Assembly (NCBI RefSeq): GCF_022045235.1
Contig: NW_027266286.1
Location: 65,596,001 to 65,660,000 of the forward strand
Origin: Haliotis cracherodii
Taxonomy: Eukaryota
DNA length: 64,000 bases
Reading direction: 5' to 3'
The first letter of the stretch is position 1. Each line of letters begins with the position of its first letter. Positions 3,901 through 39,000 of the stretch are shown here, in pieces. Under the pieces are notes generated by a model. It had not been told where the DNA came from. It saw nothing but the letters and a program-made list of their open reading frames with translations, and did no database searches. Both the position numbers and the translations under genes were made by a program.

Positions 3901-4095
3901 CAAGGCCGTAGTTAACTTACTTTTTTTTTCTTTTTTTAGGGTGGGTGGGGTGGGGGTGGGGTGGGGGTGGGGGGGGTTCGGGGCAAATATACAAGTATTG
4001 TATTTTCATGATTCAAATAAAACTGTTTTCTATAAAAAGTCCAGGGGGGCAAACCACCCCACCCCCCACCCACCCTGCGGCTGGCTACGGGACTG
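3901..4095. mobile_element. Short hAT-like MITE; related copy in opposite orientation at 5245-5395
   Basis: Ends CAAGGCCGTAG...CTACGGGACTG; the second copy shares both ends; G/C-rich interior; no clear TSD. Confidence 0.55.
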
Positions 4096-5820: not shown

Positions 5821-6358
5821 GCCCCCGTTACACTATCAAAAACGTAGTCAAAGTCCTTTTTGACCAAATTTTTGATAGTGTAACGTGCTGTCAAAAACTT
5901 TGACAAAGTTTTGGACGGACTTTGATGGAATAGAAACCGATCTTATTTCTCGTCAAACTTTGATCAACGTTTGATGACGTTGATTTAATTTAGCCAATCA
6001 GAATGCAAGGAACATTTACCCCTTTTCAACCGGAAATGCATATAGTCAAGTCAAAATGATACAACTATTTTGGACTGACGAGAAGTTGGAAGAATTAATT
6101 GATTTGTTTCAACAACGAGCAGCCATTCCCAGGACCAAATATGGTTTTGCCTACCCCGACGCCGCCTTCTCAACATGGCAATACACAAAATACATATGAC
6201 AACAGCAAACATTTCTTCGTCAGTAGCATCCATCTTGGCTAGATAATTCCCACCAAAACTTTGATGAGTGTAAACAGTCCAACTTGGACCAAGAAAACTT
6301 GGTCAAAGTTTTCTTTGACCAAGTTTTTTATCCAAGTTTTTGATAGTGTAACGGGGGC
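5821..6358. mobile_element. PIF/Harbinger non-autonomous element (internal-deletion derivative)
   Basis: Perfect 23-bp TIR GCCCCCGTTACACTATCAAAAAC; TAA-type flanks; subterminal palindromes; stumps of two convergent ORFs. Confidence 0.8.
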
Positions 6359-6870
6359 TTAAGAACAAAACAAACATGTATATAGTCCATGCTTTAAAGT
6401 GTCAAACTGTTCGTGACATTGGCAGGATCCTGTTCATCTGACGCTAGTGTTCGATTAAGTTAAATTTAGTGTTGGTTTTGTCGCGGTAATTTAGGCCCCT
6501 GGTGCGACCTCGCAGACCAAGTTACCGTAAACACAGTTAATATTGTACAGACGCTTCTTTCAGTGTCAGATCACACATCTCATGAAAATATAATTATAAA
6601 GATATTACCCTCGTGTGTCTCCGTGCCGTAAATAGAATATATTAGCAATATAGAATATGGATATCCTCTCCTTGAGTATAATGCATATTTATACGGAAAC
6701 ACACGGGGGTAATCTTTTTTCATATAATCATTCTTAAAGTAATGGATGTTTAAAAGGTAATTCCACTTGACGAAGTAAGTGTAGAAACTGCGCATAACTG
6801 CAATAAAACGCAGCTTTTGCGCCGACGCATTGAAAAACCCATCTAAGCATATTAGTCAATCGTTTATTGC

Positions 6871-12900: not shown

Positions 12901-15900
12901 CTTGTGTACGCCTCATGGTTGTAGTCTATTACAGGCTAGGGTATCTGCACCCTACCATCCAACTGTAAATGCATAGCGTGAGGTAGGATAAGTTTAAAAA
13001 TGTGGAAATTTTATTGCAAGTTGTGTATTTATATACTTATCCTATCTCACACATTATATGCCCTTCCAACCATTTCCGCATCACAATAACTCCGCCCTAT
13101 TAGCTCTGACAAAAGATGAATGATATGGCAGGGTTAATCACCTGATTAGGTCGTGTATGCCGCTATGCCAGTGTTCCCGCTGGCTTTTAGAACTGCCAGT
13201 CAGACCGGTAACTCTAAAAATGACCAGTGCCCCCCCCCACCCCCCCCCAAAGTTTTGTCAGTCCCAACTTTAAACATATGAAAAAACATATGAAAATTGC
13301 CTGCTTTTAATTCTTTCAACCTCATGTTCATTTCATCGCTGAACATGCTGAGGTGACTTAGTTAGATCTGCACTTCATTCACTCGAAGTCCAGGCACAAT
13401 AATCTCCTTTTGTTTTAATATTTCAAGACGAAGTCACTACAAATATACTTTTAACCTCGAAACAAAGCAAAATGTTATTTCCTTGTTCTAAATATCGACA
13501 AGGGGAAACCCTGATGGTAACAGACAAGCTGACTTCGTTCGAAAAATATACCAATATGAATATCACAGATTTATAAGGTACTCTATTTGCCGGTCACATG
13601 AATTACTGGCCTAATATTATTGGTAAAAAACTGGTAATTACTGGTAAATGGGAACACTGTAGGCACAGTAGTATAGAGGGTGACATATTTGTTTTGGGTA
13701 GTGACCATGGTGATGCTTGGATGAGTTTGGGTGAATTGTTTTTTAGCAGCTGGAAACTCTGTTCATGCACGTTTCCACAATGGACCAAAGAAGAAATCAG
13801 AGATGCATAGTTTGATACAGGATAAATATATTAATATACAAATTACAATTCAAAATAAAATTTCCATTTGGTTTATGTCTTTTCTTTTTATATATTACAC
13901 CCATGTTCATAATTTAACATGTTTGAAAATGTCGGTGACTCCACCCTGTCTGTGTTCACAGGCTGCCCCTAACATCGTGACTCCAGACCAGCGACAAGCT
14001 GCTGAGAGAGTCATCTTGGATTTCCGCAAACGGAAACTGCCGTACAGCATTTGTAGATACATTCTAGGTGAGCTCATAACCGACGCTAGAATTTCATATG
14101 ATCATGATAAATTGATAATCACAAGCAGTAACATTTTAAATTGGATGTTAAATATGACATGTTTCTTTCAAAGGTTAAGCTGGATGGAGGAACAAAATCA
14201 CATTACCGGCTTGAAGCTAAGCTAGGCGAAAGAGTTTATCTAATTAGCAGACACTTCAACACAGGAAAACTGGTGCTATCACCATAATTGTTTGTTTACC
14301 AAGTGATCAGCACCTGATTGTTTACCATTTCTCCGAAACTTGATACAAATTGTACAGATTTCCTCACTCACAGTGGATTAAGTCGATAAAAGTGATAGCT
14401 AACCCATACACTGCCTCACAATTAACGCCAAGGATCGTAAAGGGGTGCCTATTCCCGAGGATCATTGAGGGTGTTTGATTGACAAGTGGTGCACATCCCT
14501 AAGGATCATGAAGGGGTGTCTGGTCTGAAAGGGGATGAGGATAGAGTTGGGAGACATGCTGGATCTGACAGTAGAGCTGACAGTAGAGCTAACAGTAGAG
14601 CTGATGACAGCTGACAGTAGAGATGATGACAGCTGACAGTAGAGCTGATGACAGCTGACTGGATGTACTGGATCTGACAGTAGAGCTGATGACAGATGAC
14701 AGTAGAGATGATGACAGCTGACAGTAGAGCTGATGACAGCTGACAGTAGAGATGATGACAGCTGACAGTAGAGATGATGACAGCTGACAGGATGTACTGG
14801 ATCTGACAGTAGAGCTGATGACAGCTGACAGTAGAGATGATGACAGCTGACGGTAGAGATGATGACAGGTGACGGTAGAGATGATGACAGCTGACAGGAT
14901 GTACTGGATCTGACAGTAGAGATGATGACAGCTGACAGTAGAGATGATGACAGCTGACAGGATGTACTGGATCTGACAGTAGAGCTGATGACAGCTGACA
15001 GTAGAGATGATGACAGCTGACGGTAGAGATGATGACAGGTGACGGTAGAGATGATGACAGCTGACAGGATGTACTGGATCTGACAGTAGAGATGATGACA
15101 GCTGACAGTAGAGATGATGACAGCTGACAGGATGTACTGGATCTGACAGTAGAGCTGATGACAGCTGACAGTAGAGATGATGACAGCTGACGGTAGAGAT
15201 GATGACAGGTGACGGTAGAGATGATGACAGCTGACAGGATGTACTGGATCTGACAGTAGAGATGATGACAGCTGACAGTAGAGATGATGACAGCTGACAG
15301 TAGAGCTGATGACAGCTGACAGTAGAGATGATGACAGCTGACAGTAGAGATGATGACAGCTGACAGGATGTACTGGATCTGACAGTAGAGCTGATGACAG
15401 CTGACAGTAGAGATGATGACAGCTGACGGTAGAGATGATGACAGGTGACGGTAGAGATGATGACAGCTGACAGGATGTACTGGATCTGACAGTAGAGATG
15501 ATGACAGCTGACAGTAGAGATGATGACAGCTGACAGGATGTACTGGATCTGACAGTAGAGCTGATGACAGCTGACAGTAGAGATGATGACAGCTGACGGT
15601 AGAGATGATGACAGGTGACGGTAGAGATGATGACAGCTGACAGGATGTACTGGATCTGACAGTAGAGATGATGACAGCTGACAGTAGAGATGATGACAGC
15701 TGACAGGATGTACTGGATCTGACAGTAGAGCTGATGACAGCTGACAGTAGAGATGATGACAGCTGACGGTAGAGATGATGACAGGTGACGGTAGAGATGA
15801 TGACAGCTGACAGGATGTACTGGATCTGACAGTAGAGATGATGACAGCTGACAGTAGAGATGATGACAGCTGACAGTAGAGATGATGACAGCTGACAGTA

Positions 15901-18900
15901 GAGATGATGACAGCTGACGGTAGAGATGATGACAGGTGACGGTAGAGATGATGACAGCTGACAGGATGTACTGGATCTGACAGTAGAGCTGATGACAGCT
16001 GACAGTAGAGATGATGACAGCTGACGGTAGAGCTGATGACAGCTGACTGGATGTACTAGATCTGACAGTAGAGCTGATGACAGATGACGGTAGAGATGAT
16101 GACAGCTGACGGTAGAGCTAATGACAGGTGACGGTAGAGATGATGACAGCTGACAGTAGAGCTGATAATAGCTGACGGTAGAGCTGATGACAGCTGACGG
16201 TAGAGCTGACAGCTGACTGGACGTACTGGAGCCGACGGTAGAGCTGATGACAGATGACTAGATGTGCTGGAGCTGACAGGTCAGCACTGATGACTGATGA
16301 CACAGCTGGCTAGAAAGCTAGAGATAACAGAACAGCTAACAGAGCTGACCAGAGAATGTAGCGCTGACTGTGTGATAGAACAGCTCATTACAACAGCTCA
16401 GTTACAAATACCTACAAATGACTCACCAGCTTACTATGGAAACATCCTATTCTTAACTCATAGTACAAGGTCAGACATTTCCAATGTACTTATGTTCAAT
16501 GACCATCTCCGTGGTCTAGTGGTAGAGCGACCGCCCCGAGTGGGTAAGGTCGGGGTTTGAACCCTGGTCGCGTCGTACCAAAAGACGTTTAAAGATGGCA
16601 CTTGTTACCCTGCCTGGCGCTCGGCATTAAGGGGCTAAAACAAGGACTGGTCAGGTCAGAGTCAGTATAATGTGTCTGAGTGGGGTATTTATGTTAAACT
16701 GCGGCATGGTATCTCAGTGGGCTAGCACGATGACAATGGCATTAGTCCGGACAAGCAGCACCACGCACGCTCGCGAGCACACACGCACGCATGTCGCTAT
16801 ATAAGTGCAGTAATCTTGAGCATGATATGAAACCCCTCACATAACCACTTCCACTTCAATTCCACCCATGGGATGTTCTGCCTGCAGAGACCAGCAAGAG
16901 TGACTATGTGCTGTTCCAGTCGGCCACCACCATCAAGGAGGGGATTGTGAGAGAATGGACATTGCTGTCATCTGAGGATGTGGAATCACTCCGTTCTTTC
17001 CTGCTTGGATACATTACAAAGAATATCAGGTATATGGTTGGAGAGAAAGGAGGGAAGTGAACTCCTGTTAACTGTGTTTTCTATTTGCAATGTCTCTCAG
17101 AAAATATGTAACATGTTTATTTCATTTATTTAGTAATCATGGTAATTATGAATTGCAAGTGATTCCATTGCATTTTCTTGCTAACCACATAATCATTTTT
17201 GCGTTTGTGTGCCCTTTAACCCCAAAACTGATTAGGTCATACTCAACAGTGTAATACTGTTTCTTGATTGGCTGATAATATTGGCTGAGCTTGGGATGCA
17301 TTTATGCGCTGAACTATGTCCCATTGAATTCGTATCATTGTCTACAGTTTTTTGTGTTAATAATACTTTGATAAAATATGCAGTCTATTAAGTTATTCGT
17401 GGTTTTTTTTGTATTTATCAAGGTATTTTGCCAAATTTTGTTCTTAATATTTAAAATAATAGGTATATTAACAGCAAAAGAAACTCAGGTGATAGACATA
17501 TTTAAAAGTCAATTTTGACATAGGTCTGTAGAGCTGTGTGATTGAATTTTGATAATGAATGGGCAAATGATCTGGTCTACAGTTTAGTCATCTTCCCGAG
17601 GCAAGAGCATCCACCAGCCTTTTGTTTTGTGTGCCATGGTCCAATTGTGTTAAGCACAAGGAACTGGGCTTGATGTGGCAAGGGTGGACCCAAGGCTTTG
17701 ATAAAAGAAAGGTCAGTAGACATGGTAGATGCTCTTGCCTCGGGATGATGCATCTTAGTAGACTGTATACAGGACAAAGGTTGGACATGTTGGAAGATGA
17801 TGTTGAACTGTTGAATGGTTTAGATTGTATAAGTAAATTAAGGGTTACTTTTCACTGTGAAAAATGAAAAGTCATACTTCACTTGTTATCCAATTGAGGC
17901 TACACAAGAATATGTAATAATTTAATGTGAAGTAGGAGATCGAGTGTTATGGTATTTGTGTGTTATGGTATTTGTGTGTTATGGTATTTGAGTGTTATGG
18001 TATTTGAGTGTTATGGTATTTGAGTGTTATGGTATTTGGGTGTTATGGTATTTGGGTGTTAGGGTATTTGAGTGTTAGGGTATTTGTGTGTTATGGTGTT
18101 TGTGTGATATGATATTTGAGTGTTAGGGTATTTGAGTGTTAGGGTATTTGGGTGTTAAGGTATTTGAGTGTTAGGGTATTTGAGTGTTAGGGTATTTGAG
18201 TGTTAGGGTATTTGAGTGTTATGGTATTTGGGTGTTAAGGTATTTGAGTGTTAGGGTATTTGAGTGTTAGGGTATTTGTGTGTTATGGTGTTTGTGTGTT
18301 ATGATATTTGAGTGTTAGGGTATTTAAGTGTTAGGGTATTTGAGTGTTATGGTATTTGTGTGTTATGGTGTTTGTGTGTAATGATATTTGAGTGTTAGGC
18401 TATATGAGTGTTATGGTATTTGAGTGTCATGGTATTTGAATGTTAGGGTATTTTTGTGTCATGGTATTTGAGTGTCATGATATTCGAATGTTACATTAAT
18501 TGAATGTTGTGGTATTTGAGTGTAACTTATGGTATTTGAATGTTATGTTATTTGAGTGGTATGGTATTTGAGTGTTTTCTTTCAGCCTCCAGAGCTATGT
18601 GAGAGAGCAGATCCTTCAGACAGTCGCAGTCATCCTCAAACGTGGCACCCTCGACACCAAGGGCTCTGGCTGTGACAGCCTCTTTGCTGATGTTACCCAG
18701 CTTATAAGCAGTGGAAATGTTACCATGGTAACCATGTGATCCCAGACTTTCTTACATCATGTACATATGGCTGCATTTGTAATGATAACAGGACACAAGG
18801 GACTTCATATTTTATTTGGGTCATACTCATTTCTACATGTAGTAGTCCATGCTTTTCTTATTTTTGTTGACTTTAAAGCAACATTCACTGACAATTTTAA

Positions 18901-21900
18901 TGTGGCATGAGATGTAACCCATAGCAACAGTCATGAGGACAGAGAAGTTTGAGATTGTTTGGTCGGATGACAATGTAGGCTAGTCTGCTGGCCTGTGACT
19001 ACTAAATTGTGTTGTGGACAAGTTAAAATCCACTGATGGTAATCTTCATTGCCTAGTAGCATTTGAGGGCTAGAATTCTGAACCAGTTCTCATTACTTAA
19101 ACTTTGCTACAAATTTTAACCGAATAAAACTGACAGAAAATAGTAAACTTTTTTGTCTCCTTCATGATGGACTGGCTACAAACTTTGACGTCTAGTGAAA
19201 TAAGGTTATCTTGCCTAGTCTTTAAAACAAGAAATATTTGTGAGTGAGTTGGGTTTAACACTGCTTTTGACATTATTCCATTTCTATCATGGCGTCTCAG
19301 ACATTTACCTCCTTGGCGAAACACACTAGCATGGGTATAGTGCTGACAAACCTAGAAACATAATTGGGGTGAACCGGGATTCAAACCCACAATCATAGGT
19401 TTCTAGCGTGCCCAAGGGATGCAACTCTGCACAGCAAATCGCAGGGACCTAAGACAATGGGCTACATGTGCCCCCAGAAATATGTATGGCTGCACATGTA
19501 TACAGTATATATGTGCCGCCATGAATATTTCTTGTTTGTAGCAGCCGACATGGTAGATACACATGTATGTTTCCTGTCCCCCAGCAACTTGTGGCGTGCT
19601 CCATGCTCACAGCCCTCCTCAACGAATACTCCAGCTCAAGTAGGACCAGCAACGTCGGCTTCACATGGGAGTTCCACACGCGGTGTAAGAGAGCTTTTGA
19701 GGTACGTTGTCCGTATGCTTTAAACTTACAAGTACCACGTTATGATCAATTCTGATGTGACGTGAAAAACATTCCTTCGTCGAATCTGTTATCTCTCTTG
19801 ATACAGTCTTTCACTGTATCATGACCATAGGTCCATATACTTCAATCTTGTTGTGGAGTCCTCGCCCACTACCTCCACCACCTTCACCACCACCACCTAC
19901 TTCACCAACTACTTCCTAGTCACCCCCCACCAACCCCACATCCCTTATCGAGCAACTGCTTCCACCCATTGAGGCTTCCCACCATCCCGTATTGAGCCAC
20001 CATCTCCATCATTGAAGTTTCACCATCCCGTACCGAGCCACCATCTCCATCAGTGAAGTTTCCACCATCCCATATCGAGCAACTACCTCCACCATTGAGG
20101 ATTCCCACATCCCTTATCGAGCCACCACCTCCCATCATTGAAGTTTCCACCATCCCATATCGAGCCACCACTTCCATCATTGAAGTTTCCACCATCCCAT
20201 ATCGAGCCACCACCTCCATCATTGAAGTTTCACCATCCCGTATCGAGCCACCACCTCCATCATTGAAGTTTCCACCATCCCATATCGAGCAACCACCTCC
20301 ACCATTGAGGCTGGGACCATCCCTTATCGAGCCACCACCTCCACCATTGAGGCTTCCCACATCCCTTATAGAGCCGCCACCTCCATCATTGAAGTTTCCC
20401 ATGATCCCATATCGAGCCACCACCTCCACCATTGAGCCTTCCCACATTCCTTATCGAGCCACCATCTCCATCATTGAAGTTTCCACCATCCCTTATTGAG
20501 CCACCACCCAAACCCATCACTTCACTCCTCATCACCCAGCTTCTTCTCACCCAAACCCATCACCTCACCTCCTCATCACCCAGCTTCTCCTCACCCAAAC
20601 CCATCCCATCACCTCCTCATCACCCAGCTTCTCCTCACCCAAACCCATCCCCTCACCTCCTCATCACCCAGCTTCTCCTCACCCAAACCCATCCCCTCAC
20701 CTCCTCATCACCCAGCTTCTCCTCACCCAAACCCATCACTTCACCTCCTCATCACCCAGCTCCTCCTCACCCAACTCATCACCTCCCTGACACCCAACTC
20801 ATCACCTCCCTGACACCCAACTCATCACCCCGGTCCTCAGCCAGCTCTTCATCACCCAAACCCATCACCTCACCTCACCTCCCTGACACCCAACTCATCA
20901 CCCCGGTCCTCAGCCAGCTCTTCAGCCAGCTCTTCATCGGACTCCACTCCTTTCCACTGTACAATGCATCCTTCACACCCGTCTCTGCCTTCTATTGCAG
21001 GAGAAGGACCTGAAGAAGGTGTTTATGTTTTCCATGCAAGTGTTGAACGAGCTTAATGCACAGCCGACCCCCCTGACCCGCGAAGCCACTGCCGTCCTTA
21101 ACCGTGTCCTCTCCATCACAGAGCAGGTCCTCAGCTGGGAATTCACACCTAAAACTCGTATCCTTCACAACACATCCTTGGCGATTGACTGGCAACAAGT
21201 GCTGTCCATTTTTGTTCATCAGCCTATTTCATCCTGTTTTTAGCCTTACCTTACACCCAGTTTGACATATACCTTCTTAACACTTATTTCAACTTTCACA
21301 TGCATGTGACTCCTCAGGTCCAGCAGCTAAATGAATGTGCTAAAATTTGGCAGTACAGTAAACTTCAGTTATTAACGAACTTAAAGGGACCACTAATTTT
21401 TGCTCGTAATAACCGTAGTTCATTATACTATATACAGCAAAAGGGACGGGACCATAAAACAGTTCAATATATCCATCAGTTCTTTATGAGCAAGTTTGTT
21501 ATAAATGTAGTTTACTGTGCTTCCTTTGCCAGTCTGTTCTTGAGCTTTGTATTTCAACAAACTGATGAAAGTTCAGTAACAAACTAAATAACATATCATG
21601 CAAACACACCAATTTCCTCATGCTTGCCCCTGCTGATTCTGTCATACGCTGACAGTGTGGGAATTTGTTCCAAATATCACCCTCTGGTTCTAGTCTGTCC
21701 CAGGAACCAGTGGTTGATATTATGAAGCGCTTCTCACATCAGTAGAGTGCATTCTACCATTACATTGGAGAATGCTTGATTCTGATTGGTTAAAAAGTGG
21801 TTTCCTTTTTGAAACCGTAACCCCTTTTAAATTTTTAAGAATTTTCACACAAAAAACGTGCACATGAATGCAGCGATGGACTACATATCAATTCATAAAA

Positions 21901-24900
21901 AATAGCTGCCGATCGATCACCCATAGGAACTGTAAAACATATCAATATTTCCTCTATTACACGCTGGGTCTCTAGTAAAAGCCAGGTCTCTAAAACACGC
22001 CGGGTCAACAGCGTTCACAATTAATAGACTGCCTAGCATCTAATAGAGAAAATATGGTAGTATGTAGGATATATAGCATGTTTTTGGCGACGATATGAAG
22101 TTCTAGTCCATCACCCTGACAGCTTCGTTGGACTATAGCTGGAATATTGCTGACTGTGATGTAAAACAACTGACAAACATACATGTAGTATTTCACAAGC
22201 ATTTACTAGTGTAGGTTGGTGGAAAGTGAGCCTATCATGCTGTGGTTTTGTCAAACAATGGATGTTCAGTTCCTTCACCTTCGACAGTTATCAGAAAACA
22301 TGTGGGGTGTTTTTCCATCAACCAGAACATCACCCTGAAGCCCAACGCTTCATGGAGGGACACACTGCTGGACCCTACAGTGCTGGGGCTGTTCTTCAAG
22401 GTAAGCAATGTCCCTCCCTATTGACCCTTCTACCCAAGGCTTTACCCCACAGTGCTGTGGCTGTTCTTCAAGGTAAGCAATGTGCCTCCCTATTGACCCT
22501 TCTACCCAAGGCTTTACCCCACAGTGCTGGGGCTGTTCTTCAAGGTAAGCAATGTCCCTCCCTATTGACCCTTCTACCCAAGGCTTTACCCCACAGTGCT
22601 GGGGCTGTTCTTCAAGGTAAGCAATGTCCCTCCCTATTGACCCTTCTACCCAAGGCTTTACCCCACAGTGCTGGGGCTGTTCTTCAAGGTAAGCAATGTC
22701 CCTCCCTATTGACCCTCCTACCCAACGCAGGACCCCACAATGCTGGGGCTGTTCTTCAAGGTAAGCAATGTGCCTCCCTATTGACCCTCCTACCCAAGGC
22801 TTTACCCGAAAGTGCTGGGACTGTTCTTCAAGGTAAGCAATGTCCCTCCATATTGACCCTCCTACCCAACGCAGGACCCCACAGTGCTGGGGCTGTTCTT
22901 CAAGGAAAGCAATGTCCCTCCCTATTGACCCTTCTACCCAAGGCTTTACCCCACAGTGCTGGGGCTGTTCTTCAAGGTAAGCAATGTCCCTCCCTATTGA
23001 CCCTCCTACCCAACGCAGGACCCCACAATGCTGGGGCTGTTCTTCAAGGTAAGCAATGTGCCTCCCTATTGACCCTCCTACCCAAGGCTTTACCCGAAAG
23101 TGCTGGGACTGTTCTTCAAGGTAAGCAATGTCCCTCCCTATTGACCCTCCTACCCAAGGCTTTACCCGAAAGTGCTGGGACTGTTCTTCAAGGTAAGCAA
23201 TGTCCCTCCCTATTGACCCTTCTACCCAAGGCTTTACCCCACAGTGCTGGGGCTGTTCTTCAAGGTAAGCAATGTCCCTCCCTATTGACCCTCCTACCCA
23301 AGGCTTTACCCCACAGTGCTGGGACTGTTCTTCAAGGTAAGCAATGTCCCTCCCTATTGACCCTCCTACCCAAGGCTTTACCCCACAGTGCTGGGACTGT
23401 TCTTCAAGGTAAGCAATGTCCCTCCCTATTGACCCTTCTACCCAAGGCTTTACCCCACAGTGCTGGGGCTGTTCTTCAAGGTAAGCAATGTGCCTCCCTA
23501 TTGACCCTTCTACCCAAGGCTTTACCCCACAGTGCTGGGCCTGTTCTTCAAGGTAAGCAATGTGCCTCCCTATTGACCCTTCTACCCAAGGCTTTACCCG
23601 AAAGTGCTGGGACTGTTCTTCAAGGTAAGCAATGTCCCTCCCTATTGACCCTCCTACCCAAGGCTTTACCCCACAGTGCTGGGGCTGTTCTTCAAGGTAA
23701 GCAATGTCCCTCCCTATTGACCCTCCTACCCAAGACTTTACCCCACAGTGCTGGGGCTGTTCTTCAAGGTAAGCAATGTCCCTCCATATTGACCCTCCTA
23801 CCCAACGCAGGACCCCACAGTGCTGGGGCTGTTCTTCAAGGTAAGCAATGTGCCTCCCTATTGACCCTTCTACCCAAGGCTTTACCCCACAGTGCTGGGA
23901 CTGTTCTTCAAGGTAAGCAATGTCCCTCCCTATTGACCCTCCTACCCAAGACTTTACCCCACAGTGCTGGGGCTGTTCTTCAAGGTAAGCAATGTCCCTC
24001 CATATTGACCCTCCTACCCAACGCAGGACCCCACAGTGCTGGGGCTGTTCTTCAAGGAAAGCAATGTCCCTCCCTATTGACCCTTCTACCCAAGGCTTTA
24101 CCCCACAGTGCTGGGGCTGTTCTTCAAGGTAAGCAATGTCCCTCCCTATTGACCCTCCTACCCAACGCAGGACCCCACAATGCTGGGGCTGTTCTTCAAG
24201 GTAAGCAATGTCCCTCCCTATTGACCCTCCTACCCAAGGCTTTACCCCACAGTGCTGGGACTGTTCTTCAAGGTAAGCAATGTCCCTCCCTATTGACCCT
24301 CCTACCCAAGACTTTACCCCACAGTGCTGGGGCTGTTCTTCAAGGTAAGCAATGTCCCTCCATATTGACCCTCCTACCCAACGCAGGACCCCACAGTGCT
24401 GGGGCTGTTCTTCAAGGAAAGCAATGTCCCTCCCTATTGACCCTTCTACCCAAGGCTTTACCCCACAGTGCTGGGGCTTTTCTTCAAGGAAAGCAATGTC
24501 CCTCCCTATTGACCCTCCTACCCAACGCAGGACCCCACAATGCTGGGGCTGTTCTTCAAGGTAAGCAATGTCCCTCCCTATTGACCCTCCTACCCAAGAC
24601 TTTACCCCACAGTGCTGGGGCTGTTCTTCAAGGTAAGCAATGTCCCTCCCTTTTGACCCTTCTACCCAAGGCTTTACCCCACAGTGCTGGGGCTGTTCTT
24701 CAAGGTAAGCAATGTCCCTCCCTATTGACCTTTCTACCCAAGGCTTTACCCCACAGTGCTGGGATTGTTCTTCAAGGTAAGCAATGTGCCTCCCTATTGA
24801 CCCTTCTACCCAAGGCTTTACCCCACAGTGCTGGGACTGTTCTTCAAGGTAAGCAATGTCCCTCCCTATTGACCCTCCTACCCAAGACTTTACCCCACAG

Positions 24901-27900
24901 TGCTGGGGCTGTTCTTCAAGGTAAGCAATGTCCCTCCGAAGCAAATTGGTTGATAGGGTGTCATTACACCCCAGCTGCATTGATTGTTGCTCACAATATC
25001 AATCATTGGATTGTCAAGACCAGTCTGCTGTCTTATAACTGGATTATTGCTGAGCGTGTGCCGCAAAAAAAATAAAAAATTGATACAACTGAAACTATGT
25101 TTTACTTACTTACTCATGCCATTACACACTCAAGACTTGGGAACACTTGTTGCCCAGTGGTCTAAGCCAGCACAATTTGCTGTGCGGAGTTGCATCCCCT
25201 TTGTGTGCCAGGCTCCAGTGATCATTGGTTCCTATCCCTGATTTTGGCCCTCAGTTTGTTCACATCTAATATCTGCATTGCTATTTTGCTTCCACATTTG
25301 GCTGACTCTTTGTTTCTTGTGTTAATTTTTTCTCCTTTTAAGAAACTTGACCCTTTTCTTGTTTATATTTCAGATCTACGACAAGGTTCGGCACAATTCT
25401 GAAATGGCCCATCATGCCTCCCAGTGCCTCAGTCAGCTGGCATCGCTCAATGGCCAAATCTTCAGCGATGAAAAGGCCAAGATCCAGTACCTCACCAGCT
25501 ATATCGATGGCTTCCTACAGCTTCTCACAGGGTAGGGAAAAACTAGATGCACCGGGATCACCAAGTTGACAGATAGTGAAATCATTGTTAACAGTCGGAC
25601 CACCTGTAGCCTGGAGAAATAGATTGACTTCTCTGGCTCGACCTTATTACTGCCTGACCTCATACGACTCCAACTCGACCTTATTACCTTCTGACCTCAC
25701 CATGGCAACAGAAAGCAAAGATACCGCATCATGCATGCTATGTAAATAATGTGTATGATAAGAAGTATAAACAGAAGCATTTGTCACGTGACCGCTAAGC
25801 GACGGCAGTAGCTTTCATGGTGTTAAGATATTGCAGTGATAATGGCGTCTCTAGTTATTTGTCACACAGTTTCAGTCCAGGATTGAGTAAAGTTCTGATC
25901 AGTCACATTTGGCTTTTTGTACAGATTTAGATTACTCAGGCAGCTTCGTACAGATTGCACTGTACATCAATACGTGCTGCCCAGATATAGATATTGGTGA
26001 TAGTTCCAACATAGTAGGATGTTAATTCTATCGTTTATGGATTGTGTGTGCAGACTGGGTCTTCAAGATTTCGAGCACCTTGGTATTTCCAACTGCTTCA
26101 AGAACCTGGCTATGATGTTCCCGCTGGCATGCTTCATGGAACTGCCGATGCTGCACTTCCGGGCCTTCGTCGATCACATGACCAGACTGACATGCTCAAT
26201 GGGGAAGGAGGCAGCCAAGGAAGAGGCGGTATGTCATGTCAAGTTTGTCTTTGATTCTTTAATTCTTTGAGTGGCATTTAGAAGTTGGAATGGTAACTAA
26301 GACAAAATTGTTATGGATGAGCAACTTCTTTATTACAATTGGGCGACGTTTCGGTGTAGATTCTAACACTGTTATCAAGCCAATGAACATTTGCTTGATG
26401 ATGGTGTTAGAATCTACACCGAAACGTCGCCCAATTGTAATAAACAAGTTGCTCATCCATAACAATTTTGTCTAAGTTGTCTTTGATTGTTTAGATTTAA
26501 GTTGCCATTTGTTGGAACTAATGTTTAATATTCTGTGTTTTGTTTTGAAGTCTGGTTAAGAAAAAGTCCCCATGAATTTCATTTCCTCATGCTTGAGCCG
26601 ATATATGTGCATCTCACCCTTCACCTTCTTGTTGCACTGGCTGTTCTAGATGGATCGGGATGACACAATCCACATGGAGGCATACGAGAAGATGCTGGAC
26701 ACCTGGATGCAATTTGCCACCAATGTCAAGTCCTTCCCCGAAGGTGCACTCAAGCCACACGCCACGGAAATCTTCAACTCCTACGTCCAGTGTCACATCA
26801 GTTCCCCCGAGGGGATCCGCTCACAGCTGATGGTTAGTAATACACATGGGTGGTCAGTCCGACTACATTATGTTTGTGGGGTATAACGTTACACTGTACT
26901 TTGAAACTGTATCGTTAACAGTGTTCAAAATAACCGCATGCCTATAGACCTATGGCAGGTAGATCTTGTGTTGGGCCCATAGTTTCAAATTTGTATGGGT
27001 CCTTATGGGCTGGGCCGGTGAACATCCGGGGTAGAATAGGTCTTCAGCAACCCATGCTTGCCGTAAAAGGCGACTATGCTTGTCATAAAAGGCGACTAAC
27101 AGGATCGGGTGGTCAGGCTAGGTGACTTGGTTGATGCATGTCATCGGTCCCAATTGCGTGGATTGATGCTCATGTTGTCAATCACTGGATTGTCTGGTCC
27201 AGACTCGATTATTTACAGACCACCGTCATATAGTTGGAATATTGCTGAGTGCGGCATTAAACAACAAACCAAACCAAACCAAAACCTTATGGGCTGCATT
27301 GAATTTATGAATCGATTTATTTATCACTGTAAGCTTCATTTTTTTGTTATATGATGGCCGGAAGTGTTTAATATAGGCCTGCAGGTTTTAAAGCCTCTGG
27401 GTATTGATGGCAGTTTGGTAATTTATTTTATTTCAAACACTGCTCGTTACAACATTTCAGAATGGAAGTGCTTCAGCTCATGATGAGGAGATTGATGAGA
27501 CAGAGGAAGATGACCGGGACAAGTTTTCAGACCAACTCTGTTGTATCGGTGCCCTTGCCCGGATTGTACCTGAACACACCATCCCCCTCCTTGCAAAGTG
27601 AGTGTCATAACCATGAGCAGGAATTACCATTGTCAACATCCCAGCATACTTAGCGTAGTGTGTGACCTTTATTTCACTACCGGGGGCACGGGTGGCCCAG
27701 TCGTCTAAGGGGCCACAATTCACTTTGCAGAGTTGCGCCCCTTGGGCACGCCAGAAACCTATGATTGTGGGTTTGAATCCGGTTTGCTCTGATTATGTTT
27801 CTAGGTTTGTCAGCACGATACCCATGCTTTTGGGTTTCACCGAAGTGGTAAACGGCTGAGACCTGCATCACTTCGGGCTTTCCTCCCACAGCTGACACGC

Positions 27901-30092: not shown

Positions 30093-33000
30093 AACCTGTC
30101 TCTTGGATTCAGTGTGTATTTCTGTGATCATGAAATCGCTTCTGTACCCTTACAAATAGTCACATTGTATTAAAACAAGTATCTATGACTTCAATACTCT
30201 AAATCTTGAAATTAATGCGTTTCCAAATTAATATGATTGCCGACCCCTAGCCCAAAATGCGACTCAATATTAATGTGAATCCCCCCCCCAGTGGAATGAT
30301 CCAATATCCTTACCTTAATCCAACGTTACCTTAATTCAATCAAACAGCAGATAGCGCCGCTTACTAGTGATGAGTAGAGCACTTCTGTAAAAACAATAAA
30401 CTGTGATGTGGAATATATAGTTGTTTGTGTTTATATTCAAGTTGGTATTTCCGCTATCCAAAGTGTGCAGTGATTCCGTCTTATTGTTGATAGTCAATTT
30501 GGAGACATAAATGCATAGTTTAGTTAATGTCAGCAAGGACAACTTGCATTTTTTCACTTTATTCACGCTTGCTTTAATTTCAAGATATACGTTATTTCTA
30601 TTATGTGGTCAGGCTGATTGCTGGGATGTTTCGACTGTGTGAGGTGGAAACTCGAGCGACGGATGTCAAGTTGGGTGACTGCCTAAGTCCGGAGGTTGGT
30701 CGTTCGACCATGTGGTTCCTGCGGCGGTGGATCCACTCCTACCTCCTCCCCGACGAGAACTACTACTCCCAGGTGAGTCACGCACTCAACCCTCACTGTT
30801 CACACGGGTAGGAACATCTAGACATTCTAAAACCTGACAATTAGTAGTCTGATGCCTTGATATGAAAATGTTCATCTGCCATGCTTCCACTTTCTGCGAT
30901 CTTTAATCTGATTGGTCCTGCTGTTGCAGGTGTCCTCCCCTCAGTCCCCACCCCCCTCTCGCCCCGCCTGTGTGAGTACACCACACTGTTCTATTGTTGT
31001 ACTAACCTTCAGATTACAACTTGGGTTCTCAGGCAGCCATTAGGAAGATTTAGTGTTGGCAAGGGGTGGTCCGTGTTTCATGGGGCACGCCACAGAGGGT
31101 ATGAACCGAATGCCTGGGAACCAAGGCTGTTTATTTTGCTATTGTTGTTTTTGTATTGAAGGTGCAAGATCTAATCTGTAATTTTCACTCACACCTTTTT
31201 ACTGTTATGGCAAATTAAAAGTAAACAGGTCTGGTATTGGAGTCCAGATAAACAATGAACAATTTTTTTATTACCAGATATTATAATAATAGGATTAAAT
31301 TGCATACTTCAGTTTGGATTTATTGACTCGTATTTCCGGTGTTACGTGATCGTGGTGATCAGCTGATAATGTTTTCTGAGATGGGGGAAAACATTGTCTC
31401 ATTGGAAAACTTGAGTTTATTGAAATATTAGTAAATTTTGGGAGCCATGCTTTACCCCGCGCTATAACCGAGTTAGCGCTATATTGAATCGTGCAATAAC
31501 GAGGGAACACTGAACGCAACAACTTGTAATGTTTGGGAAAAGTCGTACTAAAATACGCTATTTGAAGGGGGCGTGGCCTAAATGCAAATGTCCGATGGGG
31601 ATTTTAAATTTTCCGGATCCCTGTCTTGGACATTTACTTTTAATCGTGCTAATGGTGAAAAGGTATCGCATTTTTACAATGGGTGCTGTGTTATAACGGA
31701 TCTGTTGTTTCTGTTCTTACTGGGTAATATTATCAATATTTGGTCTTTTTTCCCCAATATATTATAAAAAAAGTATCACTTAGAAGTTGGATCTTGCACC
31801 TTTAAGGCAGTTTTCATTATATTTGTTATTGTCAAACATAACTGAAAAAAGCATTTTTGTTACCATGGTTACCTGTTGAAATGTTGCAGATAAGGCAGCC
31901 AAAAAAAAGTTTTGCTATACCTTACCTCAACCGATACTGTTACTATGAAAGAACTACCAAAGTTTTTTGGACTTAAACGTTTATGTTTTAAAAAGATTTA
32001 GCTTCAGTGTGTCTTGTGATACTAGTATGTGTAACGAATGAGTAAATTACAGCTGTATGACCAGAAACTGAACAAAGGTCAACTCTTGAACCACGTTCCA
32101 CAAATCGGTCGTGGTGCTAAGGCGATCTTAACGCCCAATAATTGGCTTATGACAGTTGTAGCATGAAGATCACTGTGTGGAGGGAGGCCCTGCTGTTACT
32201 AGTGTTAGTCCTTCATGCATGCATGTTTGTCCGTTTCTGTGACATATGTTTAACATTGGCAGGTAACGAGGGAACACTGTTTGTCAGACAACTAATTGTC
32301 AGTTGCACAATGGACGAGGCACTAATTTTAGGCTGTGTATATTGTTAGCAGTTCAGTGATCACATTTTACACAAGTTTAAAAGTTATTTGTTAGTCACCA
32401 TTTATTCCCACAGTTTACTAACAATTTAAAAATCTCAGAATACAAAAACTAGCCGTAATTACCATATTAAAGTTCAGTGCATCTTGCATACAGTTGCTTG
32501 TTAGACATTCTCAGAGTAGCATTTTGAATCAGCGTCAATGACAAGAAAGGCACCATTCAAGTTTTGTTATGGTTGATTAAAACATAGGGTACATAAAGGG
32601 GAAACCTGTGGTAAAATAGACAAGGGGTAGAATAGGTCTTCAGCAACCCATGCTTGCTTTAAGAGGCAACTATGCTTGTTGTAAGAGGCGACTATGCTTG
32701 TTGTAAGAGGCGACTATGCTTGTTGTAAGAGGTGACTATGCTTGTTGTAAGAGGCGACTATGCTTGTTGTAAGAGGCGACTATGCTTGTTGTAAGAGGTG
32801 ACTATGCTTGTTGTAAGAGGCAACTATGCTTGTTGTAAGAGGCGACTATGCTTGTTGTAAGAGGTGACTATGCTTGTTGTAAGAGGTGACTATGCTTGTT
32901 GTAAGAGGCGACTATGCTTGTTGTAAGAGGCGACTATGCTTGTTGTAAGAGGCGACTATGCTTGTTGTAAGAGGCGACTATGCTTGTTGTAAGAGGCGAC

Positions 33001-36000
33001 TATGCTTGTTGTAAGAGGCGACTATGCTTGTTGTAAGAGGAGACTATGCTTGTTTGTAAGAGGCGACTATGCTTGTTGTAAGAGGCGACTAACAGGATCT
33101 GGCTGACTTGGTTGATGAATGTCATCGTATCCCAATTGCGTAGATCTATGCTCATGATGTCAATCACTAATTTTCTGGTCCAGACTTGATTATGTACAGT
33201 AAAGGCCACCTTCATCGCTGGAATATTGCCATGATTGCTGTGTGTGGTGTTAAACAACATACAAACAAAACAAGTCACATTATCTGACCTTCTCAGTTTT
33301 GATAAGTGTGAATGTGAAAATGGGTAATTACTAGGGCTGTTACGATTCACTCGTGTATTCGGTGAATCAAACTGATCCATTCATGAATTGAATTCGTTAT
33401 TCGTGGTCACTAGAATCGAATATTAATGAACTCTTTTATATTTAATTTGACATTAATGTGGTCACTGGTCATTGTTGCATTTTAGCAGATACTAGTACCT
33501 AGATAAGTGCAGTATATAAATGTATTATATGTTAATAATTAACAAACTATGTAATATTTATTTATTTTGTTATTGTTTCAATAACTATAAAAAAAAATAC
33601 ATCAATTGCTGACCTGCTATTGTATTCATGAATAAATATTTGTATTCGTTACCCTATATTCATGATACAAATCGTATTCGCCTCACAGTGTATTCATTGC
33701 AGCTCTAGTAATTACCCCTCACCAATATCTTTATGAAGGCCTGTGATTCTGGTCACCTAAGGCACTGTAAGCCTGGTGTCAGATTCCACCTGCCTGTAGC
33801 ATCAAGTGCTGTGTGTGTTGTAGATGAGCATGGCGCTGTCAGCAGCGTTTGGCCGTGACACTGACGGAGCACAGTGGACTATTTCCTTCCTGCTGCAGAA
33901 GACCATCAACAACCTCAACATCTGGAGCAGTGAAGAGTCCCTGCTCAAGGATACGATGGAGATGTTCTCAGCGCTGGTGGAGACAAAGGCCAGGTACACT
34001 GATCATTATCGGCTGCTGCTAATGCCTTTAACATTTTTATATCTTTTGATGATTTTCTACTTATGAGCCTTCAGACTTGCCGCCCACATCAAGCTGACAT
34101 GCTGTGATATACTAGCAATTGAAACTGTTCACTCACTCACTCACACACTCACTCACTCACTCACGCACCCACGCACCCACGCATGCACTCATTCACTCTA
34201 CATATGATGTATTTAATCAATCATTACAAATCCTTACTGTATTTCTGCAGGGGGCACGGGTGGCCCAGTCGTCTAAGGCGCCATGATTCGCTGTGCTGAG
34301 TTGCGGCCCTTGGGCATGCCAGAAACCTATGATTGTGGGTTCGAATCCCGGTTCGCCCCGATTATGTTTCTAGGTTTGTCAGCACCATACCCGTGCTCAT
34401 GGGTTTCACTGAAGTGGTAAATGTCTGAGACCTACATCACTTCGGGCTTTCCTCCAACATTCAGCTGACGCGCCTCGATATAACTGGAATACTGTTAAAA
34501 GCAGCGTTAAACCCAACTCACTCACTGTAATTCTGCACGGTCATGATGATGTTTATAATTCTTTTTTATATAGTTGGGCAAATAAAAATAAATTAAACTC
34601 CTTTTCTTTTCAATTTTCTTCAAAATATAATGTGTCCTCTACATAATAATAATTGATGAAAACTATTCTAAGTAGGTAGGACCAGCAGTTGGTTTTGAAT
34701 CGTCACGGACATGTCCAAATTGTATCAGCAAATACCGAAGTCTGTGTTTTCAGGGCGTCATACGTGATCAAGGTGGAGAACCTGTGGCATCTGGCGCGGA
34801 TGGAGGCCAACAATGATGCTGTTATCGAGGGCCTGCCATCTGCTGTCCGCCGCCTCATGATGAAGGCTCTCGTACTGGCGGGAGTTGGATTCAGGGAGGA
34901 CTCCAACAAGGAGGAGTATTGGAAACTGGTAGGGGGTGCACAAACCACCTCTCTGAGTTGGAAATTAATAATTGCCAGAATCGTACAATGGACTTAGCTT
35001 TTAGTAGAGATTTTATGATTATGGAATTGTTTTTGTTGCCTTTATTTACAACAGCTATATGCCTTCAAGGAAACTCCCACTGTGTAAGACTGCCTTCATG
35101 GACTAGTGGTAGAGCGTCTGCCCAGACTGATGAAGGTCCGGGGTTCGATCCCCGGCTGTGTCATAACAAAAGAGTTGGCGGTCGGGTAGCCTAGTGGTTA
35201 AAGTGTTCGCTTGTCACGCCGAAGACCTGGGTTCAATTCCCGACATGGGTACAATGTGTGAAGCCCATTTCTGGTGTCCCCCGCCGTGATATTGCTGGAA
35301 TATTGCTAAAAGCGGCGTAAAACCAAACTCACTCACTCACTCATACCAAAAGATGGTACTTGTTGTTACCCTGCCTGGCGCTCGGCAGTTAGGGGCTAAA
35401 ACAAGGACTGGTTGGCTCGTAGTCAGGATACTGTGTCTGAAAGGGGTATTCATGTTAAACTGTGGCATGGTATCTCAGTGGGCTAGCACTATAAATCTGC
35501 TATCAATCCCGACTAGTACACATACATGAATGCATACATGCTATATAAGTGCAATAATCTTGGAAGCGAGGTTAAACCCCATGTCACTTTACCTCACCCA
35601 CTGCTACACAGTTGAAGCTTGGTTTTATGACATATTCATAGGCACATGCTTGTGAATTTAGTCAGAATCGACTCTAGTTTTAGTAGAGAATATGTTATAA
35701 ATTATGGAAGTGTCTTTAGTTGCTTTCATTTGAAACAGATTTATTCTTTCAAAGACAACCACACTGTCTAACCAGGTGAGCTTCAGTACTGGTGATCCAG
35801 TTGGTATGAAGATAACAGATAATGATAAAACATTGACTGTCCCAGGTGCTGCAGTCTGTCCACGACCGCTTCTATGCCCTGGTGTGTCAGGAGCACTTTG
35901 CAGACAAGAAGGTTACGTGTAAGAATGCTGTGATGGGCATCCTCGACGTGCTGCTGGGGATAGCCCAGGGTTCCAGACTCATCAACCTGGACCGCATCTT

Positions 36001-39000
36001 CCTCTTCCTCTCACCCCTCCTGGCGGAGAGTGTCAAGTTGCTGGGTGAGTCCTCCCGCCCCCACTGCCCCCTGCCAACTTCCTCTTCCTTTCACCCCTCC
36101 TAGCAGAGAGTGTCAAGTTGCTGGATAAGTCACAGAGTAGAAGAAAGTGTCCTCCCGCCCCCACTGCCCCCCGCCAACTTCCTCTTCCTTTCACCCCTCC
36201 TAGCAGAGAGTGTCAAGTTGCTGGGTGAGTCACAGAGTAGAAGAAAGTGTCCTCCCGCCCCCACTGCCACCCGCCAACTTCCTCTTCCTTTCACCCCTCC
36301 TAGCAGAGAGTGTCAAGTTGCTGGATAAGTCACAGAGTAGAAGAAAGTGTCCTCCCGCCCCCACTGCCACCCGCCAACTTCCTCTTCCTTTCACCCCTCC
36401 TAGCAGAGAGTGTCAAGTTGCTGGATAAGTCACAGAGTAGAAGAAAGTGTCCTCCCGCCCCCACTGCCACCCGCCAACTTCCTCTTCCTTTCACCCCTCC
36501 TAGCAGAGAGTGTCAAGTTGCTGGGTGAGTCACAGAGTAGAAGAAAGTGTCCTCCCGCCCCCACTGCCACCCGCCAACTTCCTCTTCCTTTCACCCCTCC
36601 TAGCAGAGAGTGTCAAGTTGCTGGGTGAGTCACAGAGTAGAAGAAAGTGTCCTCCCGCCCCCACTGCCACCCGCCAACTTCCTCTTCCTTTCACCCCTCC
36701 TAGCAGAGAGTGTCAAGTTGCTGGATAAGTCACAGAGTAGAAGAAAGTGTCCTCCCGCCCCCACTGCCACCCGCCAACTTCTTCTTCCTCTCACCCCTCC
36801 TGGCGGAGAGTGTCAAGTTGTTGGGTGAGTCACAGAGTAGAAGGAAGTGTCCTTCTGCCTTCAGCGTGTGACGACGTTCATACAGTGTTCGTCTCTTACT
36901 TGTCATAATACATTAACATCAAGTACAAGATGTCAAAATGTCTGACAAGACAAACGTGACGGGAGAGATTTCTGAAGTTGTTCATGCGACTATAACAAGT
37001 GTTACTCATCACTGATCAATTAACTGATCATTGAAAGGTGATTGTAAAGATGTGTCCAATAGATTAAGATAAATTCATAGATTGCTGTAGACTGCCACTT
37101 AGTCTAGACACGGATCGAGTTGATACTACGATAGTTTGGATATGGCTTTCTAAGTTTTGTTCTCTAGAATGGGTTTTATCGAAGATATCCTTGAACAGGC
37201 ATGCAATCAAACTCTCTGACTTATCACAATGTATGATAAAACACTAATTTCAAGATAAAAGGGTCTAAATGATGAGAAACAAGGTTTCTGTAGTAATTTG
37301 TGCTTGGGAATTCCCAGGGGTTTCCCCAGGAATGTGGTAGTAGTCTGTCAGTGTTTACATCATTACAAAAATACGGTCTCGTGCAAAATGTATGAACGTC
37401 AAAATGTGTCATTCATATACTTATGGACCCGTGAAGATCCGGGGTAGGTCTTCAGCAACCAATGCTTGCTGTATAAGATGACTATGCTTGTCGTAAGAGG
37501 TGACTAACGGGATCAGGTTGTCGCTTACATGGTTAATGAAGGTCATTGTATCCCAATTATACAAATTATTATACAAAAAACAAACTTAAACTTATGAACT
37601 TCAGTTTCGCAGTCATGTGACCGATCTTTCGTCCAATGAAAAAGCTGTGTATCATGTAAGATTCACATTTAAAAATGTGTTTGTTTGTGTCCCCCAAGGA
37701 CTTGAAATGTAGATTATATACATCCATTCTCAATATCTGTTCTATCTCCCCCTGTAGATCTGTACCACAGCTATGAGGAGGTGGTTCCAATGATCCTAGA
37801 GCTGTTCTCGGAGATTGTCAACAAGCAGCTGTGCTACCTGAGTGAGGTCAGTCACCTGTCATGGTTCAAGTTTAAATAACATACCGTATTCTACATAATA
37901 AGCACCCAGGGCACTCTCAAAATTAGAAATTGGGGGCTCTTATTAGAATATTACTTTGGGGAAAAAAAGATTTGAAAGATCATAAATTTCGTGGTTTATG
38001 CTGACAGCCTGAAATGATACAAAAGAAAAGTCTGTAAGTATTATACATGACGGATATATTTTTCAGAATTTATTTGCCCATAATTAAGGGTGCATATAAC
38101 ACACGAGTGCGTATTATACACGAAAAAATAAGTCTTGTGTACATTGATCGATTGGAAGGGGTGCTAGTTGTGATTGTTCACTAGCCAATATATTAGCAAA
38201 TATCGCCGTGGGCGCTTATTAGAGCGGGGTGTTTATTATGTGCTATTTTCCAGAATTTATTTGCCCATAATTAAGGGTGCATATAACACACGAGTGCGTA
38301 TTATACACGAAAAAATAAGTCTTGTGTACATTGATTGATTGGAAGGGGTGCTAGTTGTGATTGTTCACTAGCCAATATATTAGCAAATATCGCCGTGGGC
38401 GATTATTAGAGCGGGGTGTTTATTATGTGCTATACGGTAGTTACTGCACACCCGTATCAACTGACTTTGGAAACACAATGTCTATGTTGATACACATTGT
38501 TAAGTGCCAGTCTCCTGTTTCTGTAATCTACAGGATTCAAATGTCCCTCCCACAACCCGGGGGAATTGTAGGATTGATTTTTGTGGCCATTTGCTTGTCA
38601 GTGTTTACTGTCATGGCATCTTGTGAACTGATGTTTATGCTGTTTTGTTTCCCAGATGAAGGCACGGAAGCTGTACGAGCTCAGTTTGTCGGCAATACAG
38701 ACCTACTCTAAGCACAACACAGGTAAGTTCAGACCTTCATATGATGAACACTTAAATCTGCCATTGTTCCAGGAGCAATGCTGTGTCATGGTAGACACAA
38801 TGTAGAAAAAGGTTCAGTCATGTTAATGAAGCCACATCATTTATATAATTTTATAGATACCCATGTTCTGTGTGTCAGGCAAGTGTCTCGGGGACGTGTA
38901 TTCAGGTCACGTTGTGTCTGGTGGATGTGTATTCAGGTCATGTTGTGTCTGGTGGACGTGTATTCAGGTCATGTTGTGTGACTGGTGGACGTGTATTCAG

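Follow-up and report, generated by a model that had tools for sequence, protein, structure and literature searches.

A donor-spanning minisatellite at the exon 7-intron 7 boundary of abalone XPO4

The XPO4 locus and its intron 7 array

The window analyzed here is a stretch of 64,000 nucleotides from Haliotis cracherodii. The gene that it carries had been recognized in the initial annotation as XPO4, an assignment borne out by exons 6 and 8, which match Exportin-4 (PDB 5dlq_B), and by protein P0001 (source name exportin-4-like [Haliotis cracherodii]), which shows 100% identity over the exon 8 query and maps as 25 exons at 9933-45297. The features surrounding exon 7 are the following:

21001-21157, plus strand: XPO4 exon 6 (P0001 mapping, 5dlq_B match, RNA-type contigs)
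21158-22287, plus strand: U12-type GT-AG intron 6 (donor GTATCCTT, branch site TTCCTTCAC at 22270)
22288-22400, plus strand: XPO4 exon 7, 113 nt, the repeat starting from its final 29 nt, 22372-22400 (TRF, P0001 mapping, X6 and X1 contigs leaving the stretch after 22400)
22372-24937, plus strand: 72-bp minisatellite, 35.6 copies (TRF, donor count, unit comparison)
22401-22406, plus strand: authentic donor AAG|GTAAGC (copy 1), used in RNA-type contigs
22422-22424, plus strand: first in-frame TGA behind donor 1 (read-through translation)
24938-25373, plus strand: unique 3' end of intron 7, including the genuine T-rich acceptor (array's right boundary the same in relative D)
25374-25531, plus strand: XPO4 exon 8 (5dlq_B match, P0001, RNA-type contigs, mapping)

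Exon 7 does lie directly behind a U12-type intron, as first described: intron 6 has an RTATCCTT donor and a TCCTTNAC-like branch site close to its AG, and it is precisely spliced (joint 21157>22288) in both RNA-type runs concerned (X6 and X1). Human and mouse XPO4 appear as U12-intron genes in Table 3 of one survey, an entry that does not imply a match in position with abalone intron 6 (PMC1557818).

The array has a period of 72 with 93% matches and 0% indels, and TRF and the donor count agree on the 36 donor positions at 72-bp spacing (22401+72k) that had been announced. Thirty-two of them read AAG|GTAAGC and exactly four AAG|GAAAGC, at the expected 22905, 24057, 24417 and 24489; 31 intact extra donors thus accompany the authentic one, copies 2-7 being intact without exception. 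The unit had been described as the last 20 nt of exon 7 with its donor. The exon end and the donor stand, but the repeat starts 9 nt further into the exon, at 22372, so that each unit comprises the final 29 nt of exon 7, followed by the first 17 nt of the intron and a 26-nt filler. The unit is confined to the XPO4 intron 7 locus and accounts for most of that intron, which measures 2973 nt and would be about 450 nt long if the array were absent.

The 35 full units fall into 19 types with a mean pairwise difference of 6%, and the longest repeated block is three units. Variant alleles number one in the 6 nt of the donor hexamer, against 0.25-0.35 per nt in the exon copy and filler and 0.09 in the 11-nt intron copy, which argues against a targeted knock-out of donors. 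The GA donors are one variant propagated by duplication, with no excess of knock-outs. The filler is similar to nucleotides 22330-22350 of exon 7 (15 of 21 nt alike; P 0.004-0.047 over six variants), a likeness noticed post hoc and only suggestive as a clue to origin. Local folding does not distinguish donor 1 (0.011) from its copies (0-0.021). An 882-codon antisense open frame runs through the array because the 72-nt unit is stop-free. The only AATAAA, at 25071, is altered in relative D, and on this ground a role of the array in protection from polyadenylation was dismissed.

Splicing around the array in related species

Transcripts were followed in Logan contigs of depth 5-14. None of the runs listed is on record as RNA, and those used are of guessed type 'RNA?' but contain spliced joints. 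The runs come from relatives, none identical to the window, whose arrays may be far shorter, and such contigs lose rare and decay-sensitive forms. They were compared with two stretches of the window containing one array unit apiece, and the absence of joints was judged on the one-cyclic-unit stretch only, where the joint table is complete.

Tandem copies of the same unit were directly observed outside the window. A 72-bp go-back joint is present in X18, X21 and X1 (among the joints listed), and X1 and X2 each have a 102-nt contig of the unit, so that the tandem repeat exists in organisms G, D, A and B. Since these DNA or RNA contigs stem from four relatives, the array is no artefact of assembly, the objection that the initial annotation had raised against itself. 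The copy number of 36 does come from the assembly alone, but an assembly error could hardly be credited with 19 unit types in 35, repeated blocks of at most three units, zero indels and a right boundary shared with D, and it is extremely improbable. Contig depth, which is not a copy number, points loosely to some 3-6 units in D and to fewer than in the window in G too.

The main mRNA uses the authentic donor in these relatives. Exons 6, 7 and 8 lie back to back in a single unbroken 820-nt contig of X6 (organism D) and in a 631-nt contig of X1 (organism A). On the one-cyclic-unit stretch, the sole splice joint in X1, X6 and X2 has an upstream side of 27+2 = 29 nt. This is exactly the part shared by exon 7 and the unit, so that the joint departs from exon 7 proper; with a distal donor, as many as 55 nt could stand there. 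In these low-depth contigs, exon 8 is thus joined only to exon 7 proper in three of three runs. The unit contigs of X1 and X2 (depth 4.3 and 8.1) do not cover the unique intron behind the array and fit either pre-mRNA or DNA summed over copies, or some retention of the array.

Reading past donor 1 gives KVSNVPPY and then the TGA at 22422-22424, the stop per unit that had been predicted. Were any distal donor used, XPO4 would end after 283 of its 1142 aa, and 17 junctions lie downstream of exon 8's start in each such product. It had accordingly been suggested that the array acts as a copy-number rheostat, in which donors 2 and beyond take a length-dependent share and XPO4 falls because the products with a stop are degraded. 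The 31 extra donors indeed equal the authentic one in strength (score 10.9, among the strongest of XPO4, which range from 5.7 to 12.7), and human 6-16 and CBS do splice from extra donors (PMC1557585). However, none of the three RNA-type runs (X1, X6, X2; one-unit stretch, low-depth contigs) contains a distal-donor joint, the state of the donors shows no sign of selection, unrelated genes bear the same kind of array, and F7 is described as using only its most upstream donor, even against stronger ones (PMC1557585). A rheostat is thus left unsupported and is unlikely. The CBS VNTR has reportedly been tied, in the title of a study, to reduced activity, which we count in favor of a rheostat.

Each unit had also been taken for an acceptor, a 20-nt exon and a donor. 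An AG precedes the 20-nt copy in 31 of 35 units (23 with TTTACCCCACAG, four GAAAG and four GGACCCCACAG, the remaining four ending in CAA without AG), and a branch-like TTGAC is seen 28 nt upstream. This 'acceptor' is exon 7's own AG, copied with the exon end; relatives have C at 22376 in four of four runs, as do the array units, so that it matches their exon sequence as well. It is T-poor, with 0-3 T in 17 nt against 5-13 at all 24 real acceptors, and weak, scoring at most 2.6 on a matrix built from 22 sites of XPO4, above which 20 of the 22 real sites score; 21% of 87 ordinary intronic AGs match the unit acceptors. The gap between adjacent 20-nt units is 52 nt, compared with 361 nt for the shortest XPO4 intron, and neither a 20-nt microexon nor a 20-nt go-back joint appears in the three low-depth RNA-type runs, a weak test. 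A single inclusion (donor k to the CAG of unit k+1) would shift the frame, as was claimed; three units combined remain in frame and stop-free, giving a 20-aa insert and a protein of 1162 aa. Despite that possibility, inclusion of such pseudo-microexons is very unlikely.

A higher-scoring candidate acceptor resides at the donor itself. The AAG within CTGTTCTTCAAG|GTAAGC, found in each unit, scores 4.1-6.5, above the unit CAG and inside the range of real acceptors, although these scores come from the matrix of 22 sites. Donor 1 could join the AAG before a later GT, rebuild a donor and remove intron 7 stepwise; the end product being normal mRNA, the contigs are compatible with such recursive splicing. 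Recursive splice sites are known to require YAG and a polypyrimidine tract. All 24 real XPO4 acceptors have CAG or TAG and none AAG, the likely branch motif is separated from the AAG by two other AGs, and the host introns described are very long (PMC13196383), unlike the roughly 450 nt of intron 7 without its array. We regard a ladder of this kind as quite unlikely.

Donor-spanning arrays elsewhere in the genome

XPO4 itself contains a second array of this type, found by internal comparison:

36049-36853, plus strand: donor-spanning array at XPO4 exon 17; 100-bp unit, eight extra copies (four GT, four AT)

It does not stand beside a U12-type intron, and XPO4 has no array at the exon that follows its second U12 intron; a link between arrays and U12 introns was rejected. 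These observations bear on the proposal that the array is a sink for U1 snRNP, affecting splicing of the adjacent U12 intron or of other genes. Thirty-two strong U1 sites do start at least 113 nt behind the U12 acceptor, but that intron is spliced in both X6 and X1, arrays occur in unrelated genes, and U1 is very abundant relative to any one pre-mRNA. The sink finds no support and has next to no probability.

In other genes, donor arrays were found at five of 221 sampled donors (2.3%, 95% interval 0.7-5.2%). The sample comprised those 117 of the 124 listed kinesin matches that lay within the stretches examined (the match on contig C74 being outside the list), 20 of 58 DEAD matches and dynein; myosin matches, mostly one paralog cluster, were left out. 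Kinesin donors gave 5/116 against 1.0 expected (P 0.004), dynein 0/85 and DEAD 0/20 (pooled 5/221, P 0.04). The kinesin excess failed to replicate in dynein and DEAD, and an enrichment of arrays at donors is not claimed; minisatellites make up 13.7% of 695 kb of other gene regions. Four matches were seen on the acceptor side, one of which (L072) is a mis-called site, and a looser copy test additionally flagged L085, a degenerate array of three units, and one scattered false match.

If extrapolated to an assumed 150,000-200,000 introns, a rate of 5/221 would place thousands of donor arrays in the genome, which would amount to a natural experiment on a large scale. Were XPO4 output governed by array length, a nuclear export factor would be under repeat-length control, and abalone, with arrays at about 2% of sampled donors, would tune many genes by repeat length were the ladder or the leak real. 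It is unlikely that a long allele such as this one is spliced recursively, step by step, at its AAG|GT sites, or that it loses a share of transcripts to nonsense-mediated decay that rises with the number of copies.

A probably tolerated repeat and its known counterparts

The neutrality conceded in the initial annotation is the best-supported option. The locus holds a minisatellite made of the exon 7 end, its donor and filler, which is most probably spliced out whole through the most upstream donor; on this best reading the array is an unstable repeat that the gene tolerates, and its distal donors stay silent for the most part. Transcripts of related species splice from the first donor, from which it follows that the extra copies are likely ignored. 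The repeat probably arose by local duplication across the exon 7-intron 7 boundary, as the likeness of the filler to exon 7 suggests, and probably grew by unequal exchange or slippage, with expansion to 36 copies presumably in this lineage. Donor choice would be first-come, via definition of the 113-nt exon as in human F7; because the most upstream donor is chosen, the array would leave whole with intron 7, and any leak would be cleared by nonsense-mediated decay. At least four relatives have kept the repeat, an outcome compatible with neutrality but not predicted by it.

Taken as a single locus, this is an ordinary case, another boundary minisatellite, if a long one. Its 32 identical strong donors, with unit-specific variants as barcodes (such as a G at unit position 32, found in 7 of 35 units and absent from unit 1), offer a test case for first-come donor choice outside mammals, and the array is equally usable for counting recursive intermediates there. 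No report of abalone boundary minisatellites was found among the papers listed from the open-access literature, to which the search was confined.

Recursive splice sites (AG|GT) share with the unit an AG directly before a strong donor (PMC13196383). The unit differs from them by its AAG instead of YAG, its short tract, its short intron and its derivation from an exon.

Closer counterparts are human VNTRs. In F7 IVS7, the first monomer of a 37-bp VNTR spans the exon end and identical donors follow, as in XPO4, where exon 7 ends at 22400 within unit 1; F7 has 5-9 copies with 4 exon nt and the XPO4 array 36 copies with 29 (PMC1557585). The most upstream donor alone is described as used in F7, and likewise in the relatives' XPO4 at low depth, although scanning was demonstrated for F7 in mammalian cells and would apply to XPO4 by analogy (PMC1557585). 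An exon end with its donor is repeated 10-25 times in CBS IVS13 (31-bp VNTR, its unit described in PMC2630376), 6-16 (IFI6), LMNB2 and PDGF (PMC1557585). The LMNB2 (100-bp) and PDGF (81-bp) units, comparable in size with the 72-bp unit, are likewise said to use the first, authentic donor only (PMC1557585). CBS and 6-16 use two extra donors, in contrast to XPO4, where none was seen at low depth; they speak against our best reading (PMC1557585).

The amphioxus 'mirages' of Adh3, the globins BflGb6 and BflGb9, troponin C and PGBD5 (PMC3087553, PMC3902484) are, like the XPO4 array, tandem duplications across an exon-intron boundary, several per genome, and leave splicing undisturbed (PMC3087553). 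Their units measure 10-160 bp, a range that includes 72 bp, and the splice signal is retained in many but not all of them, as is GT in 32 of the 36 XPO4 copies. The XPO4 array differs by its mollusc host, its 36 copies against 3-6 in BflGb6 and its position behind a U12 intron. With the genuine boundary inside its first unit, it is an exon-boundary minisatellite of the mirage or F7 type.

XPO4 exon 7 and its tandem array

Exons 6 and 8 match the mouse-type Exportin-4 chain 5dlq_B (E 3e-5 and 4e-10, respectively), and the exon 8 query is 100% identical to a protein record whose source calls it exportin-4-like [Haliotis cracherodii]. Mapped onto the window, this protein yields 25 exons with GT-AG ends. 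Intron 6 displays U12 signals on motif reading and is removed as 21157>22288 in both RNA-type runs examined (contigs of relatives), in agreement with the initial annotation, which had placed a U12 intron directly upstream of exon 7.

22288-22400: XPO4 exon 7, joined to the start of exon 8 at 25374 (protein mapping)
22372-24937: 72-bp tandem array, 35.6 copies, 93% matches, no indels (TRF)
42072-42432: XPO4 intron 22, the second U12-type GT-AG intron, donor at 42072 (motif and exon mapping)

TRF and the donor count confirmed the 36 donor positions first read from the sequence (GT in 32, GA in four), the knocked-out donors lying where they had been placed. The repeat starts 9 nt deeper in exon 7 than was initially proposed, and its unit comprises 29 nt from the end of the exon, 17 nt from the start of the intron and 26 nt of filler. 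A likeness between this filler and exon 7 positions 22330-22350 (15/21, P 0.004-0.047, spotted post hoc) hints that the filler was templated. Nineteen types are distinguished among the 35 full units, with a mean distance of 6% and a longest repeated block of three units. The four GA donors represent a single variant, and variability across these 35 units was no higher in the donor hexamer than in the exon copy or the filler. The exon end, searched in the same genome by a method skipping common words, gave 36 matches, all inside this array, so that the unit seems to have been born at this locus.

Sequencing runs of relatives (Logan contigs) were compared on two stretches, each with one array unit. 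Runs X18 (organism G), X21 (D) and X1 (A) show a 72-bp go-back joint, X1 and X2 (B) contain a 102-nt contig of the unit, and the array's right boundary in X21 is the same as in the window. Since the repeat is present in four other organisms, the array is not an assembly artefact. The depth of the unit in organism D (28.7 versus 5-9 in single-copy contigs) hints at about 3-6 units, though depth is no copy number.

Splicing across the array

In run X6 (organism D), a single unbroken 820-nt contig corresponds to exon 6 in letters 84-242, to exon 7 in 243-355 and to exon 8 in 354-513, and an equivalent 631-nt contig crosses the three exons in X1. On stretch 24866-25600, X1, X6 and X2 show only one splice joint, whose upstream match is 29 letters long, the length shared by exon 7 and the unit. 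A distal donor would match further back, and the joint therefore comes from exon 7 proper. The complete joint table of these runs on that stretch holds no 20-nt go-back joint. These data are contigs of depth 5-14, RNA-type by guess and from relatives divergent from the window, and contigs drop rare or degraded forms. The unit contigs in X1 and X2, at depths of 4.3 and 8.1, are compatible with pre-mRNA or with DNA summed over the copies, and may reflect some retention of the array.

Use of any distal donor is predicted to cut the 1142-aa protein short at 283 aa, which upholds the premature stop initially proposed. Inclusion of 20-nt units was held to shift the frame; this is predicted for one or two units (stops at 355 and 298 aa), but three would remain in frame.

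Each unit had also been read as an acceptor, a 20-nt exon and a donor. Given the 9-nt shift of the unit's start into exon 7, its 'acceptor' CAG is, on sequence grounds, the exon's own. Position 22376 is C in the array units and in 4/4 runs of relatives, and T in the window's exon. The C+T count of the unit tract (9-11) lies inside the range of real XPO4 acceptors (8-14), and its T count is 0-3 versus 5-13 in all 24 real ones. With a matrix built from 22 XPO4 acceptors, real sites being scored leave-one-out, the best unit reaches 2.6, a score exceeded by 20 of the 22 real sites and reached by 21% of 87 ordinary intronic AGs. Among the alternatives invisible to contigs, the best is a recursive use of the AAG|GT sites, whose AG scores 4.1-6.5 on this matrix and whose product would equal the normal mRNA, although AAG occurs at none of the real XPO4 acceptors and intron 7 is short.

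Boundary arrays elsewhere in the gene and genome

Two of the 24 XPO4 donors are amplified, those of exon 7 (35 extra copies) and exon 17 (8 extra copies). Minisatellites cover 16.7% of the window and 22% of the XPO4 gene; in a 695-kb sample surrounding kinesin, dynein and DEAD exons elsewhere in the genome, they make up 13.7%. In that sample, whose exon ends were script-called from HMM matches and not taken from annotation, arrays of the same design span 5 of 221 donors tested, all in kinesin exons (kinesin 5/116, dynein 0/85, DEAD 0/20). Pooled donor arrays compared with the 0.83% expected by random seeding give a P of only 0.04, and an excess at donors is thus not established.

36049-36853: XPO4 exon 17 donor-spanning array, 100-bp unit, 8 extra copies, four with GT->AT including the nearest
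L086 (L, stretches from elsewhere in the genome), 4068-6389: 83 bp x 28, 62 exon nt, extra GT intact in 27/27
L079:3444-6364, L076:8607-9364, L075:6590-7411, L092:6274-8188: donor-side arrays of other genes

Acceptor-side boundary-spanning arrays occur at L102, L075 and L129, boundary arrays overall sitting at kinesin and dynein exons of this genome. Within XPO4, a 33-bp array at 38883-39309 ends at the exon 20 acceptor; its units have a short segment in common with the start of the exon and contain TTCAG|GT. Further long intronic minisatellites lie at 14559-16302, 17942-18576, 19939-20902 and 32650-33091; two of these stop within about 10 and 100 nt of the acceptors of exons 4 and 6, with no copied exon sequence. 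Domain matches in this genome (G000) further include a kinesin domain that runs uninterrupted across 18 in-frame TAA and 2 in-frame TAG codons (L039, G000:C74:4486-5433), whose contig may come from an organism reading TAA/TAG as residues; a tandem series of about 20 DEAD-domain matches, nearly identical to one another and mostly with 6-7 in-frame TGA and one TAA (G000:C12:46059184-46202094); and a tandem cluster of about 15 myosin-head paralogs (G000:C12:64.59-64.96 Mb, in part L011-L038).

Origin and relation to known boundary minisatellites

The duplication across the exon 7 boundary would owe its survival to unit 1, in which exon and donor stay intact, and to the precedence of the upstream donor. 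The array would then have expanded like the many other minisatellites of this genome, any leak to distal donors being probably degraded. Taken as a whole, we consider this account quite probable.

Of five features examined for the boundary-minisatellite class, the exon 7 array shows four, and for the fifth, length polymorphism, contig depth gives a hint (fewer units in organism D); the array is a further case of this already known class (F7/mirage). In one report, the most upstream of the identical donors is alone used in the F7 intron 7 VNTR, the authentic donor alone in the LMNB2 and PDGF arrays, and two extra donors are used in the 6-16 and CBS arrays (PMC1557585). Amphioxus 'mirages' leave splicing undisturbed according to their descriptions (PMC3087553, PMC3902484).
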